Positions 3,684-49,075 of a DNA stretch of 64,000 nucleotides are shown here, piece after piece. The stretch is taken from assembly GCA_013375475.1 (NCBI GenBank), contig JABXKD010000001.1, positions 96,001 to 160,000 of the forward strand, given 5' to 3'. A program made the translations under genes and the position numbers. Positions within the stretch are counted from its first letter, which is position 1, and each line of letters opens with the position of its first letter. The notes beneath the pieces are model-generated. The model saw nothing but the letters and a program-made list of their open reading frames with translations, was not told the origin of the DNA and did not search any database. The stretch is from Promethearchaeota archaeon. GTDB lineage: Archaea; Asgardarchaeota; Lokiarchaeia; Sigyniarchaeales; SOKP01.

Positions 3684-4898
3684 ATGGAAGAGAAAGAAGC
3701 CAAAGTAAGAGAGCTCTTCGTGAAAATGTTGGAGGATGCTGCAAAATATGCAGTGGAGTATGAGTTCTACGAAGAGGACATGAAGGATTACCACGAAATA
3801 GTGCAATGGAAGTTCGGATCTATCAGAGGATATCAAATATTCGACGAGACAGAGTATTCTTTCAAGATCGACGAAGAGGCTGAAGATCCGACCCTGACAC
3901 TAGGGACCCCTGATCTTGATCTTGCCTACCAGTTCCTCAACGACGAATTCGATCATTGGCCGGCCTTTACGGGGAGTAAATTCTTGGTTGGCATGAAAGG
4001 CCCCAATGGGAAATATAAGGAAAAGAGAATAGGAAAACTAACTGGTTTTGCCCCCGGCAGTGCCCCTAAGACCAGTTCTTCAAAAGAAAATGCCCCTCCC
4101 AAGCAAAGACGCGTGTCTGCTCGTCTGGTGAGAATACCCGTGTTTCGGCCGATCATGGAGCGGACCTCAGATCCCGAGAACTCGAACACCGTTCGCATTC
4201 CAATCAATGAGTCCTTGGGTACCTACGAAAATGAGTCGATACCTCTCGCAGTACTCGAATACTTCATAAACAAAGCAAGCCACGTCTATGTATTCCAGCA
4301 GTGCCCGTGTCGAGCGCTCGCCGATTGCAAGAATTACGACCAATCCCTCGGATGCTTGGCTCTGGGTAATGGTGTTCTGAGGATGAAGACCTTTGGGAGG
4401 ATTGGTACCAAAGAAGAGGCATTGGAACGATCACGAAAAGCTGTTGCTGCTGGTCTCCTACCTTCTCTGGGGAGAGTCAAAGGCGATACAATCGTCTATC
4501 ATGCTCTGCCTGAACAGGGAGATCTGATGCATATCTGTTTCTGTTGCCCCTGTTGCTGTGTTGAGGCCTTTGGTAAGGACTCGCCGATGTATTTGAAGGG
4601 GAAGTATCCAAAGATGGAGGGTACAAACATCACGATAAATGAAGATCTCTGTGATGGATGCGAGAAAGAGGAAATTCCTCTCTGTCTCGAGGTGTGTATA
4701 TATGGTGGAATGGAAGTCATCGATGGCGTAGCCGTGAATGACCGGGAGGGCAAGAATCGCTGTAAAGCCTGCGGAAGATGCGAGAGAGTATGCCCCAAGG
4801 GAGCGATAACTATTACCATCGAGGAGGATTCTGTGAAAAGAATGATCGCTCGCATAGAAACCAGCGTTGATGTCTCAGAAAATTTTATAAAAAGGTAA
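3684..4898 (+). CDS. SCP2-like/Cys-cluster/2x[4Fe-4S] family protein (paralogue 1)
   Basis: QW..GYQIF N-domain; CPCR..C..C; CFCCPCCC; two ferredoxin motifs, the first with an insertion (CDGCEKEEIPLCLEVC). GAGGAG RBS favours ATG 3684 (ORF track starts at 3660). Confidence 0.85.
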   Translation: MEEKEAKVRELFVKMLEDAAKYAVEYEFYEEDMKDYHEIVQWKFGSIRGYQIFDETEYSFKIDEEAEDPTLTLGTPDLDLAYQFLNDEFDHWPAFTGSKFLVGMKGPNGKYKEKRIGKLTGFAPGSAPKTSSSKENAPPKQRRVSARLVRIPVFRPIMERTSDPENSNTVRIPINESLGTYENESIPLAVLEYFINKASHVYVFQQCPCRALADCKNYDQSLGCLALGNGVLRMKTFGRIGTKEEALERSRKAVAAGLLPSLGRVKGDTIVYHALPEQGDLMHICFCCPCCCVEAFGKDSPMYLKGKYPKMEGTNITINEDLCDGCEKEEIPLCLEVCIYGGMEVIDGVAVNDREGKNRCKACGRCERVCPKGAITITIEEDSVKRMIARIETSVDVSENFIKR

Positions 4899-4944
4899 AT
4901 TCAGCGTCTGATTTCAATGAAAATTCCTTTGAAATAACCTTATT
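4892..4944. repeat. Dispersed intergenic repeat copy B
   Basis: AAGGTAAATTCAGCGTCTGATTTCAATGAAAATTCCTTTGAAA, similar to 6326-6368. Confidence 0.65.
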
Positions 4945-4949
4945 ATTTT

Positions 4950-46689: not shown

Positions 46690-47907
46690 ATGGGAGAAAC
46701 TAAGGAAGAGATAGAACAATTATTCAAGAAAATGATGGAAGCATCTGGGAGAATCGCTAAAATTAGTCCTATTTATAAGAAGGATATGAAAGATTTAGGA
46801 ACCGTAAAAGTAAATTGGAAAGTAAGTGGTGTTTTAGGATATCAAATATTTGAATTAGATAATTACACTTATAAAGTAGGAGAAAATTTAGAAGACCCAG
46901 ATATTTCGTTTGTAATATACGATGAGGATCTCGGAAAACGCTTTTTGAACGGTGAGACTGTTAGAAGAGAGTATGCTGTACGTAGAGATTATAAGGGTAA
47001 GTTTAAACTGATGCACATAATAGGTTTTAAAGATGTTGATACCGAAAAAGGTAAAAAAAGACAGAAAATGACGAAACACTTTCTTACAGCTAAAGTTTAC
47101 AACGAAAATTTTAAGCATCCAATTTCACTCGCCAAACTACCACCTTTTCAAATATCTCGGATTGCTGAGGCGGCTGAAAAAAGGAAGACTGGAGAGAAAG
47201 AATATGGAGCTTACATACCTATCAATAAGTCTCTTGGAAAATATGAAAATCAAGTAATACCGTATATTGTCTTCAAACATTTTATCGAGAAAGCGAGCAA
47301 TATTGTTTTACTCAATTGTGGATGTAGAGTTTTTCATGAATGTCAGGATCACGATCCAGGATTAGGGTGCATCTATATGGGTGATGATACTTTACAATTG
47401 TTGATGCCTGAGGTGCGTGATGTACGTATTGGCACAAAAGAGGAAGCATTAGACAGAGTAAGACGTGCTATTGATGAAGGATTAATACCATTACTCGGAA
47501 GGGCAATGGGTGAATCTGAGATGTTTGGAGTTAAAGATACGGGTCATTTCTTATCTTGCTGTTTCTGTTGTACTTGTTGCTGCGTGAATGCTAAATTTCT
47601 AACACATGGACCAAATATAAGTACCGCAATGTTTGGGAGAATTGAAGGAATATCAGTTAATGTTAATGAAGAAGCCTGTATAGGGTGTGGTAAGTGTGTT
47701 GAAGTGTGTGTATTCCGTGGTAGGGAGTTAATTGACGGTAAAGCAAAAATCGACCAGCAGAGATGTCTGGGTTGCGGGAGGTGCGCAGAAATCTGTCCTA
47801 CTGGTGCGACTACAATTGAGATTGACGATATAAATCGCGTTAACGAATTAATTGAAAAAATAGAATCTGTTGTAGATGTTCGAGACCAAGCTACCTTAGA
47901 AGAGTAG
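46690..47907 (+). CDS. SCP2-like/Cys-cluster/2x[4Fe-4S] family protein (paralogue 16)
   Basis: Same architecture; CCFCCTCCC. Confidence 0.88.
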   Translation: MGETKEEIEQLFKKMMEASGRIAKISPIYKKDMKDLGTVKVNWKVSGVLGYQIFELDNYTYKVGENLEDPDISFVIYDEDLGKRFLNGETVRREYAVRRDYKGKFKLMHIIGFKDVDTEKGKKRQKMTKHFLTAKVYNENFKHPISLAKLPPFQISRIAEAAEKRKTGEKEYGAYIPINKSLGKYENQVIPYIVFKHFIEKASNIVLLNCGCRVFHECQDHDPGLGCIYMGDDTLQLLMPEVRDVRIGTKEEALDRVRRAIDEGLIPLLGRAMGESEMFGVKDTGHFLSCCFCCTCCCVNAKFLTHGPNISTAMFGRIEGISVNVNEEACIGCGKCVEVCVFRGRELIDGKAKIDQQRCLGCGRCAEICPTGATTIEIDDINRVNELIEKIESVVDVRDQATLEE

Positions 47908-47959
47908 AATTTAAGATAATCTATATATTTTGTATAATAAAACGAAATGGTTTTTAATA

Positions 47960-49075
47960 ATGAATGAATCAGAAGATAGAGTTTATAGAGCGCTCCAGGA
48001 AAGTCTGGACAAATTGCCTATTAGTTATCCTGCTACCGAATCCGGAGTAGAGATAAGAATTTTAAAGCGGTTATTTTCTCCAGAAAAAGCGTTAATTGCA
48101 TCCAAGTTAGAGTTTTATCCTAAACCTTTGAATAAGATTTATGCTAAACTTGAGAAGAACGGCGTTCCACTTGAGGGCGTCGAAAAAGCACTTGACGAGA
48201 TGTTTGATGATGGATTAATCGGCCGTGCTATAAAAAGGGATGGCGAAGAGGAAATTAAGATTTACGCAGCATCTGCTTTTATTCTAGGATTTTACGAATT
48301 TCAGATGAATAAGATGACAGAGGAATTTATTCACGATGTAGATCAATATTTTGAAGAAGCGTATATGGAGGAGCTTAATAAAACAAAAATTCCCCAATTG
48401 AGAACGATTCCTATTGAGAAAGAAATAGGTATAGATAGGGATATTGCTAATTACGATGATTTTCGGCATTACCTCGACACTTGCGGTGAGCCCATCGTAT
48501 TAAACGAGTGCATTTGTCGAAAGAAGAACGATATAATTGGTAAAAGTTGTGAAAAAACGGATTTGAGAGAGTCTTGTTTTAGTTTTCGTTCAGCGGGGAT
48601 GGCCTATATAAATAGAGGTTTAGGACGCATAATTACTAAGGATGAAGCGCTTGAAATTATAGAACAGGCGGAAAGAGAGGGATTAGTTCTTCAAGCAGGA
48701 AACTCTCAAAGACCAGCCTCTCTTTGTACGTGTTGCGGTTGTTGTTGTAATCTTTTGGTTAACGAGAAGAAATTTGATGCCCCGGCGCAATTTTTTGGCT
48801 CAAATTATTTTGCTCAAGTGGATCAAGAGCTTTGTACTGGCTGTGGTGTGTGCGAAACGCGTTGTCAAATGGACGCAGTAGAAATTATTGACGATATATC
48901 CAATATAATCTTGGATAGATGTATCGGATGTGGAGTTTGTGTTCCCACTTGTCCAGAAGAGGCGATCAAGCTAATTGAGAAAGAAGAAAAAACGATACCA
49001 GCAAAGAACACGGTGGCAACATATTTAAAAATTGCGGAAGAAAGAAAGAAATTAGAACAAACAGAATCAAGCTGA
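47960..49075 (+). CDS. Cys-cluster/2x[4Fe-4S] protein, type B (paralogue 17)
   Basis: LQESLDKLPISYPATESGVEIRILK; CICR; CTCCGCCC; two ferredoxin motifs. ATG 47960 chosen by alignment with 22213. Confidence 0.85.
   Translation: MNESEDRVYRALQESLDKLPISYPATESGVEIRILKRLFSPEKALIASKLEFYPKPLNKIYAKLEKNGVPLEGVEKALDEMFDDGLIGRAIKRDGEEEIKIYAASAFILGFYEFQMNKMTEEFIHDVDQYFEEAYMEELNKTKIPQLRTIPIEKEIGIDRDIANYDDFRHYLDTCGEPIVLNECICRKKNDIIGKSCEKTDLRESCFSFRSAGMAYINRGLGRIITKDEALEIIEQAEREGLVLQAGNSQRPASLCTCCGCCCNLLVNEKKFDAPAQFFGSNYFAQVDQELCTGCGVCETRCQMDAVEIIDDISNIILDRCIGCGVCVPTCPEEAIKLIEKEEKTIPAKNTVATYLKIAEERKKLEQTESS

Follow-up and report, generated by a model that had tools for sequence, protein, structure and literature searches.

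A widespread family of ten-cysteine, ferredoxin-linked proteins, multiplied in a Lokiarchaeal genome, as candidate metallo-redox proteins

What would an archaeon do with seventeen neighbouring genes for one type of cysteine-rich protein? This question is raised by a 64,000-nucleotide stretch from the genome of a Promethearchaeota archaeon of the Lokiarchaeia (GCA_013375475.1, contig JABXKD010000001.1; C111:96001-160000 in our numbering), here called the window. Seventeen of its open reading frames (ORFs) encode proteins built around a domain with ten conserved cysteines that is followed by a ferredoxin domain. The best explanation of our results is that this ten-Cys family consists of undescribed, widespread and soluble metallo-redox proteins. 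The window has a G+C content of ~36% and belongs to an assembly of 3.92 Mb in 288 contigs, and the nearest relatives of its proteins carry the names Promethearchaeota, Lokiarchaeota or Thorarchaeota.

The ten-cysteine core and its ferredoxin domain

A regular-expression scan of the 51 main ORFs of the window found the motif C.CC.CCC in exactly 17, the number given in a reading made from the letters of the window alone (hereafter the sequence-only reading); all are intact, with 18-22 cysteines each. That reading described 17 paralogues in 45 kb; the count stood, but the array turned out to be longer, as the contig has three further copies upstream, and a core-only profile matches 33 times in the host genome as a whole. 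The proposed architectures were likewise recovered in the same numbers with a hidden Markov model (HMM) of the N-terminal domain (N-domain) and a MAFFT alignment: ten proteins have a single N-domain, which is SCP2-like (see below), two have it in duplicate, three are short forms of 285 amino acids, and two have a different N-terminus. Across the host genome, the N-domain HMM finds 13 single and 3 double SCP2-type forms.

We rejected the possibility that the array is a product of misassembly: a 17,928-base Logan contig from an independent unitig assembly of run X1, possibly the source sample of the genome assembly, spans window positions 4906-22833 with 0 differences, and contigs from X3 (another sample) and X4 (another study) cover 30/30 and 29/30 bins of the array, respectively. 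A pseudogene reading was rejected on the basis of dN/dS ratios of 0.06-0.23 in the five closest ORF pairs with estimable dS, which was near saturation (two more pairs gave no estimate), and the ORFs are thus under purifying selection. Pairwise identities between the paralogues are mostly 30-50%, several of them have 90%-identical counterparts in other samples, and the set is old. Among the sequencing runs listed for window positions 10686-20058 none is of RNA, which speaks neither for nor against expression.

In the alignment of the 17 ORFs, the core of ~130 residues opens with IP(I/V)N..G.YE and continues with CxCR(5)C(8)C, a helix of the form T.EEA...A...GL.P and CxCCxCCC, after which come two CxxCxxCxxxC motifs. 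Ten cysteines of the core are invariant (C202, C204, C210, C219, C282, C284, C285, C287, C288 and C289 in the numbering of ORF 10686-11852). The eight ferredoxin cysteines are also present in the alignment, with two canonical CxxCxxCxxxC motifs in 16/17 ORFs and one canonical motif plus one with an insertion in ORF 3660-4898. Pfam Fer4 (PF00037) scored above the gathering score in all eight family proteins scanned, and a profile search of the PDB aligned the C-terminal part to polyferredoxins, HdrA, FwdF and RnfB; by homology, the two motifs would bind two [4Fe-4S] clusters. Fer4 2x[4Fe-4S] domains, such as those fused to HdrA, FwdF, RnfB and PorD, correspond to the last ~60 residues of the family proteins with their two CxxCxxCxxxC(P) motifs, but they cover only the last fifth of the protein, and the ten-Cys core is part of no Fer4 model.

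Conservation of the core extends well beyond the window. Over 426 distinct near-full core domains, Cys makes up 96-100% of each of the ten cysteine columns; these rows are neither random nor independent and are not an unbiased sample. Where residues of CxCCxCCC are replaced, the commonest substitutes are Asp (9/12 and 4/7 at two positions) and His (4/11), which are metal ligands themselves. The Arg of CxCR is kept in 419/426 of the domains and a Glu in 379/426. Conservation of this kind, together with the Arg and the Glu, is characteristic of metal ligands that adjoin a polar site, and the ten cysteines may form an additional, catalytic cluster. The null named by the sequence-only reading was that the ten cysteines are structural, as zinc sites or disulfides, and that the two ferredoxin clusters are the sole redox centres. 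Nothing specific favours it, and it strikes us as very improbable: the lineages in which the family is found are all anaerobes, where disulfides are unlikely, and ten cysteines in ~90 residues beside a ferredoxin domain, with Asp and His as the usual replacements, are typical of cluster ligands.

AlphaFold2 modelled full-length ORF 10686-11852 with pLDDT 94.5 and pTM 0.89 (99-row alignment), and the core by itself as an alpha/beta domain with an overall pLDDT of 85, which rises above 95 in residues 50-120. No match to the core came from Pfam or NCBIfam, or from the sequences and folds of the PDB. For the five family proteins searched, NCBIfam returned matches to the ferredoxin region alone, a PDB sequence search with a whole-family profile found ferredoxin domains only, and one with the core profile yielded nothing beyond an aldolase at E 0.85 and a PPR-repeat match that is spurious. 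In the ESM Atlas, a whole short form retrieved only unnamed or 'ferredoxin' clusters, and the core alone, with named clusters and Fer4 families skipped, gave no usable match. The literature was equally silent: searches for the CxCCxCCC motif and its variants gave only unrelated papers, a general search gave nothing on the family, searches combining Asgard, SCP2 and 4Fe-4S found none, and those on cysteine-rich 4Fe-4S/SCP2/ferredoxin-domain proteins had only unrelated papers among the matches listed. Tandem duplications in Asgard archaea have been reported (PMC13247210); in the main text of that paper, '4Fe-4S', 'ferredoxin' and 'SCP2' occur 0 times, although its Supplementary Data 3 and 4 may list the family.

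Membership in several known iron-sulfur families was considered and rejected. CCG/HdrB-type domains (PF02754) gave 41 matches in the host genome at E <=1, none in a family gene, and the core has no fold match in the PDB; with these 41 matches, of HdrB/HdrD/GlpC type, the 3.9-Mb genome has another Fe-S redox family of very large size. The reductive dehalogenase model (PF13486) had one genome match (contig C214), which is not a family gene, and none in the Pfam scans. Prismane (PF03063; hybrid-cluster protein/CODH) matched in only one gene, on contig C212. For DUF362 (PF04015), none of the 12 genome matches at E <=1 lay inside a family gene. A true DUF362 gene (C177:22307-23116, - strand; E 1e-31) adjoins the family copy at C177:23445-24647 (+), and another lies ~5 kb from a family copy on contig C133; these neighbours may bear on the name 'DUF362' given to some family members, or they may be functional neighbours. 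The public names of the proteins are indeed '4Fe-4S binding', 'ferredoxin', 'ATP-binding' or 'DUF362', and for some short forms 'UDP-glucose 4-epimerase', so that annotation flattens the family much as had been predicted. The core had also been called uncharacterised, and this agrees with all comparisons made (Pfam, NCBIfam, PDB, CCG, Dehalogenase, DUF362 and Prismane): as far as Pfam, NCBIfam, the PDB (sequence and fold) and the searchable literature go, the core domain is a new, uncharacterised family.

Two known systems offer instructive parallels. HdrB/CCG-domain proteins, as in heterodisulfide reductase, hold two non-cubane [4Fe-4S] clusters with ten cysteines. Like the family, they have ten conserved cysteines with adjacent CC pairs, are wired to ferredoxin-type clusters and occur in multiple copies in anaerobes, and by analogy HdrB is a possible model for ten cysteines holding two unusual clusters. 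Proteins of the reductive dehalogenase/QueG type share the layout of a variable catalytic part followed by a C-terminal 2x[4Fe-4S] domain, as well as the large paralogue families in anaerobes, but the ten-Cys family has no corrinoid-binding domain.

N-terminal domains, distribution and tree

The sequence-only reading had taken the N-domain to be SCP2-like and had seen a resemblance to the stand-alone SCP2-like gene at 9982-10407. The particular resemblance did not hold up, since hhalign of the N-domain against that protein was insignificant (E 0.13), and 0/12 N-domains matched Pfam SCP2 (PF02036) directly at E <=1. The assignment as such was borne out by the fold. In Foldseek, the N-domain of the AlphaFold2 model matched AF1534 (3bn8_A; E 7e-4, probability 1.00, target TM-score 0.56, rmsd 2.8 Å over 85 columns) and, with probabilities of ~1.00, UbiJ, SCP2-like domains of human proteins and the C-terminal domain of alkylsulfatases. 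The matched PDB entries further include 1ikt, 3cnu, 6z1w, 4nur, 4axh and 6h6n. A chain of sequence matches agrees with this: the N-domain profile matched stand-alone ORFs of ~130 amino acids in sister genera (g4 and g6) at E 1e-25 to 1e-27, the three of these that were scanned (two in genome G147, one in G144) all pass Pfam SCP2 with E 8e-14 to 9e-7, and the sole matches of the N-domain HMM outside the family in the host genome are two SCP2 proteins. Fold match and sequence chain together identify the N-domain as a diverged SCP2 domain. It differs from SCP2 proper in being too diverged for the Pfam model, in being fused once or twice to an Fe-S module, and in the long beta-hairpin that follows the SCP2-aligned region in the model (DSSP), where SCP2 has helices. 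No SCP2-plus-Fe-S fusion was found in related literature searches.

The N-domain diverges faster than the module to which it is attached. Among the ten single-SCP2 paralogues (45 pairs), N-domains share a mean pairwise identity of 31%, as compared to 49% in the core and 54% in Fer4. SCP2-type N-domains were found in only 8/201 Asgard genomes, and fusions only in the host genome and 2/16 sister genomes of its genus. The host genome has 9 canonical SCP2 genes in all, as against one SCP-2 homologue reported for MK-D1 (PMC12139934). Three of the stand-alone SCP2 genes (Pfam E 4e-8 to 1e-14) lie outside the window at C212:1-8000 beside a peptidase-U32 gene (E 5e-79), together with genes for a UbiE/COQ5-like methyltransferase and an M48 peptidase. 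We take this locus to resemble the system of UbiT (SCP2) and UbiU-UbiV (U32, 4Fe-4S), which carries out O2-independent hydroxylation of isoprenoid quinones; such a Ubi-like system would be unexpected in a Lokiarchaeon. More generally, UbiT with UbiU/UbiV, and UbiJ, are SCP2 proteins that serve Fe-S or other lipid-modifying enzymes, and they provide a working analogy for the SCP2 forms of the family.

The core itself has a far wider distribution. A search of 1.84 billion representative proteins with ORF 10686-11852 gave 366 matches at E <=1e-10, and the exact C.CC.CCC is present in 119/149 among the matches listed (P0121-P0269), most of which are short forms of 260-300 amino acids. The core occurs in 128/201 Asgard genomes sampled, mostly as 1-3 short-form copies, in 36/40 genomes of the host's taxonomic family, and in 5-20 copies per genome in the host genus. 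Outside the Asgard archaea, it was found in 71/151 genomes sampled from the phylum of a Desulfobacterales holder (Desulfobacterota), with the highest copy numbers being at least 29, 26, 24, 24, 22, 20, 17 and 17. Further holders are Methanocella (including the cultured M. arvoryzae and strain MCL-LM), Methanomassiliicoccales, Anaerolineales (Chloroflexota), Desulfobacterales, spirochaetes, Acidobacteria and Desulfosporosinus. This copy-number survey, with equally large expansions in Desulfobacterota, speaks against the family as an Asgard speciality; it is widespread in anaerobic bacteria and methanogens and no Asgard invention, and it is a major, unnamed component of anaerobe proteomes. Other architectures come with other holders. 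Some Desulfobacterota have an NAD-dependent epimerase/3beta-HSD SDR fused to core and Fer4 (611 and 602 amino acids) or a form of 432 amino acids with a TAT signal. The recurrent mis-annotation of short forms as 'UDP-glucose 4-epimerase' is probably explained by such SDR-fused relatives.

In a tree of core plus ferredoxin domain (73 rows, quick method, SH-aLRT support only), a clade with the other, helical N-terminus, which includes bacterial members (support 98), stands opposite a clade of short and SCP2 forms (98). All SCP2 forms fall within one clade of 39 rows (99), and the window's three short forms are nested within it on branches with 86-91 support; with nesting at that support only, loss of the SCP2 domain in these three is possible. 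The helical N-terminus has marginal winged-helix matches, namely MarR_2 with 26.4 bits in the 29%-identical relative P0355, just below the cut-off, DprA_WH with 23.1 bits in L045 (cut-off 22.9), and weak PCI and NirDL-HTH matches. In the host genome, four paralogues of this winged-helix-like clade (contigs C261, C244, C133 and C99) have altered motifs, CNCCKDCC, CTCCGDCC, CNCCSCHC and CCCCSCC, in which one Cys has become Asp or His, or the spacing has changed.

A winged-helix-like N-terminus in the deepest clade raises an alternative, namely that the family consists of redox or metal sensors or of proteins in metal or sulfur trafficking, in which the Cys-rich domain senses or stores metal, the winged-helix forms bind DNA, and the HypA-like protein described below is a trafficking partner. 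Besides the MarR_2, DprA_WH, PCI and NirDL-HTH matches, the FUR and ZIP genes near the Anaerolineales copies and the linkage to HypA would suit this alternative. We nevertheless regard it as quite improbable, as the winged-helix matches are marginal, the FUR/ZIP synteny is confined to one bacterial order, 33 sensors of one type would be unlikely in a 3.9-Mb genome, and the SCP2, SDR and TAT versions fit enzymes better.

A HypA paralogue and the surroundings of the array

Among the family genes lies a second, divergent HypA-like gene. ORF 43742-44191 matches Pfam HypA (PF01155) with E 3e-25 and 88.8 bits (cut-off 28.9). Like the HypA of [NiFe]-hydrogenase maturation, it has the N-terminal MHE and both CxxC pairs; unlike it, the protein has a 28-residue insert, is a second copy and is set among family genes. 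It is 37-40% identical to the canonical HypA of the genus, which in the host genome is encoded elsewhere (contig C216), and no hyp or hydrogenase family is found among the Pfam matches of the window ORFs. A metagenome scan retrieved 34 contigs with the HypA paralogue (72-93% identity), and family genes were present on the fetched piece in 30/34, as compared to 0/22 control contigs, in which the HypA genes are 35-43% identical. As a rule, a short form, HypA and a double-SCP2 form follow each other on one strand and are 40-110 bases apart. In six of the contigs, a gene for a Gfo/Idh/MocA NAD(P) oxidoreductase (E 9e-62 to 8zn9_A) stands directly downstream of HypA, in place of the double-SCP2 form (e.g. 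L075:2258-3505; listed members of this cluster are L075-L078). The canonical HypA genes of the sister genomes G065, G071 and G113 are not on contigs with family matches, and G198, at 81% completeness, has no HypA match at all.

One subgroup of the family (short form and double-SCP2 form) is genetically tied to a HypA-like metallochaperone of its own. Complex prediction with the core of ORF 41106 and the HypA paralogue gave a score of 0.39, against 0.03 for the best of three controls; the mark used is reached by 58/80 solved complexes and 2/110 mismatched pairs, but only 7/80 solved complexes reach it with a score of 0.60 or below, as do both of the mismatched pairs that pass. Contacts are shared between runs to at least 55%, the partner pLDDT is at least 75, and the prediction weakly supports a pairing of core and HypA. 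We take from this the lead that a chaperone may have to deliver the metal of one subgroup or more. Nickel had been mentioned in the sequence-only reading, and the conserved HypA paralogue provides an unexpected lead in that direction; any role of this metal is one that we infer.

The genes around the array are diverse. Pfam matches in the window include a CE15-type glucuronyl esterase, a LarA_N-like protein, an aldehyde:ferredoxin oxidoreductase (AOR) with polyferredoxin and SCP2, DUF1295, an ACAD-like protein, Zn-ADH, a nitroreductase-Fer4 protein, an MFS transporter, GH2, two esterase-type hydrolases, an AMP-dependent (acyl-CoA-type) ligase, TetR and an Opp-type ABC transporter, and a cyclase-family hydrolase and a BNR protein are encoded within the co-directional block 10686-20058. 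Ligase, TetR, esterase and nitroreductase recur on related contigs, in addition to the Gfo/Idh/MocA dehydrogenase. The island looks like one for the breakdown of esterified or glycosylated, partly hydrophobic compounds.

Could the module then be a mere electron carrier for such neighbours, a specialised polyferredoxin in which the ten cysteines bind two more ordinary [4Fe-4S] clusters without any substrate chemistry? Such a carrier would serve neighbouring AOR, nitroreductase, flavoenzymes and SDR domains. Redox enzymes are frequent among the neighbours, both in the window (AOR with polyferredoxin, nitroreductase-Fer4, ACAD-like protein, Zn-ADH) and in Desulfobacterota, where the 102 neighbours include FAD oxidoreductases (5-6, the commonest), Pyr_redox_2 (4), OYE (2), NMO (2) and nitroreductases (2); direct fusion to an NAD-dependent SDR also fits a relay. 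Still, ten cysteines with CxCCxCCC are no ferredoxin-type pattern, and the invariant Arg and conserved Glu beside them suggest a substrate site. A protein that only conducts electrons would have little use for a fused ligand carrier such as SCP2, ordinary cubane clusters need no dedicated HypA, and the short form usually occurs without a conserved partner, so that we consider a pure carrier unlikely. In 44 loci from Methanocellaceae, Anaerolineales, Methanomassiliicoccales, Desulfobacterales, spirochaetes and Asgard archaea, the neighbours seen at the level of single lineages were Cdc6, histidine kinase, TrmO, dCTP deaminase, FUR, thioesterase, ZIP, TetR and DUF116. A short form that stands alone, lacking a neighbour conserved across phyla, fits a self-sufficient enzyme.

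The coordinates of the family members and of the context genes are given in Table 1. The SCP2-like gene, the polyferredoxin gene and the AOR gene (7687-10407, - strand) follow one another head to tail, separated by 53 and 4 bases, and look like an operon that pairs a lipid carrier with an AOR. ORF 6378-7652 (-) encodes a protein of 424 amino acids whose only match is the LarA N-terminal domain (E 7e-13), and this is a second nickel-associated family in the island besides HypA; LarA, lactate racemase, belongs to a Ni-pincer enzyme family. Five window ORFs of 164-674 amino acids have no Pfam family at E <=0.001: 20075-22099 (-), 40596-41090 (+), 51026-51751 (+), 61203-62225 (+) and 2782-3375 (-). 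For two of these, which lie inside the array (20075-22099, 674 amino acids, and 40596-41090, 164 amino acids), a PDB sequence search gave no match either.

Table 1. Members of the ten-Cys family and selected context genes in the window (positions count from the first letter of the window).
Feature	Coordinates	Strand	Basis or remark
Family member, single SCP2-like N-domain	3660..4898	+	Likely start ATG 3684; first ferredoxin motif with insertion
Aldehyde:ferredoxin oxidoreductase (AOR)	7687..9504	-	Island context gene
4-cluster, 16-Cys polyferredoxin	9509..9928	-	Island context gene
Stand-alone SCP2-like gene	9982..10407	-	Alkyl_sulf_C E 7e-6; SCP2 E 0.0012, below Pfam cut-off
Family member, single SCP2-like N-domain	10686..11852	+	AlphaFold2-modelled protein; reference for Cys numbering; SCP2-like domain 1-135, linker, ten-Cys core ~165-292, 2x[4Fe-4S] domain 310-370
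Family member, single SCP2-like N-domain	11908..13110	+	Motif, alignment, HMM
Family member, single SCP2-like N-domain	13218..14402	+	Motif, alignment, HMM
Family member, single SCP2-like N-domain	14429..15595	+	Motif, alignment, HMM
Family member, single SCP2-like N-domain	17569..18747	+	Motif, alignment, HMM
Family member, single SCP2-like N-domain	18850..20058	+	Motif, alignment, HMM
Family member, other N-terminus (winged-helix-like)	22213..23295	+	Deep clade A of tree
Family member, single SCP2-like N-domain	27825..28991	-	Motif, alignment, HMM
Family member, single SCP2-like N-domain	36416..37618	+	Motif, alignment, HMM
Family member, duplicated SCP2-like N-domain	37727..39343	-	Motif, alignment, HMM
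Family member, short form (core + ferredoxin domain only)	41106..41963	-	Motif, alignment
Family member, duplicated SCP2-like N-domain	42034..43683	-	59 bases downstream of HypA paralogue
Second, divergent HypA-like metallochaperone gene	43742..44191	-	Pfam HypA, MHE N-terminus, two CxxC pairs
Family member, short form	44454..45311	-	Upstream of HypA paralogue
Family member, short form	45459..46316	-	Motif, alignment
Family member, single SCP2-like N-domain	46690..47907	+	Motif, alignment, HMM
Family member, other N-terminus (winged-helix-like)	47930..49075	+	Motif, alignment

Proposed function and significance

How might these proteins work? We give a probability of about 0.5 to a scheme in which electrons run from the ferredoxin domain to the ten-Cys cluster site and on to a substrate, with the N-terminal add-on choosing that substrate. 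The constant module is the ~130-residue alpha/beta ten-Cys domain, with the invariant Arg of CxCR and the conserved Glu, plus a ferredoxin domain of the bacterial 2x[4Fe-4S] type. The ferredoxin domain would exchange electrons with a soluble carrier, the electrons would then reach one or two more metal clusters bound by the ten cysteines, and the substrate would be reduced or oxidised there. The add-ons, which would choose or deliver the substrate or a partner, comprise one or two SCP2-like domains in the host, the winged-helix-like N-terminus in the deepest clade, and the NAD-dependent SDR or TAT signal in Desulfobacterota; the common short form has none. In the host genome, the SCP2-fused forms have multiplied and diverged, chiefly in their SCP2 part. 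As this happened in an island of esterase, glycosidase, dehydrogenase, AOR and ligase genes, the SCP2 forms probably act on different hydrophobic compounds, which may be lipids. Large paralogue numbers in catabolically versatile anaerobes, 33 in the host and at least 29, 26, 24, 24 and 22 in Desulfobacterota genomes, are in favour of the scheme.

A number of points weigh against it. Cluster binding by the ten cysteines is deduced from their conservation, and the clade with the winged-helix-like N-terminus could mean that the proteins are regulators and not enzymes. No neighbour family in the 44 loci extends beyond single lineages, and no neighbour or pathway shared across phyla points to a substrate. 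With respect to HypA, the link is seen only in relatives of the host lineage, and the 34 contigs are related populations of one lineage and not independent lineages, so that they show conserved synteny within a clade and no independent recurrence. Four of the 34 contigs are without a family gene, three of these having flanks of <1.3 kb on either side and the fourth (L080) 1.9 kb on one side. HypA is absent from the 25 commonest families among the 102 Desulfobacterota neighbours, and the double-SCP2 gene of G198 has no HypA in the 7.6 kb upstream, where the contig ends in a genome that is 81% complete.

A bolder version would have the ten-Cys domain hold a non-cubane or Ni-Fe-S cluster matured by its own HypA-like chaperone, with the SCP2 forms carrying out ferredoxin-driven reduction of lipids or other hydrophobic compounds in Asgard archaea. 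We consider this version doubtful; if true, hydrogenase, CODH/ACS, urease and MCR would be joined by a new class of enzymes with nickel or complex clusters. The dedicated HypA-like chaperone makes the question of a new nickel or complex-cluster enzyme testable.

Irrespective of its metal, the ten-Cys module is encoded by roughly half of the sampled Asgard and Desulfobacterota genomes or more, in up to 20-33 copies, and has had no family model, no structure and no name other than '4Fe-4S binding protein'. The family is probably a missing piece of anaerobic redox biochemistry in carbon-cycling anaerobes. Its covalently attached SCP2 domains hint at hydrophobic substrates, and they do so in those archaea that are the nearest known relatives of eukaryotes and whose handling of lipids is therefore of particular interest.

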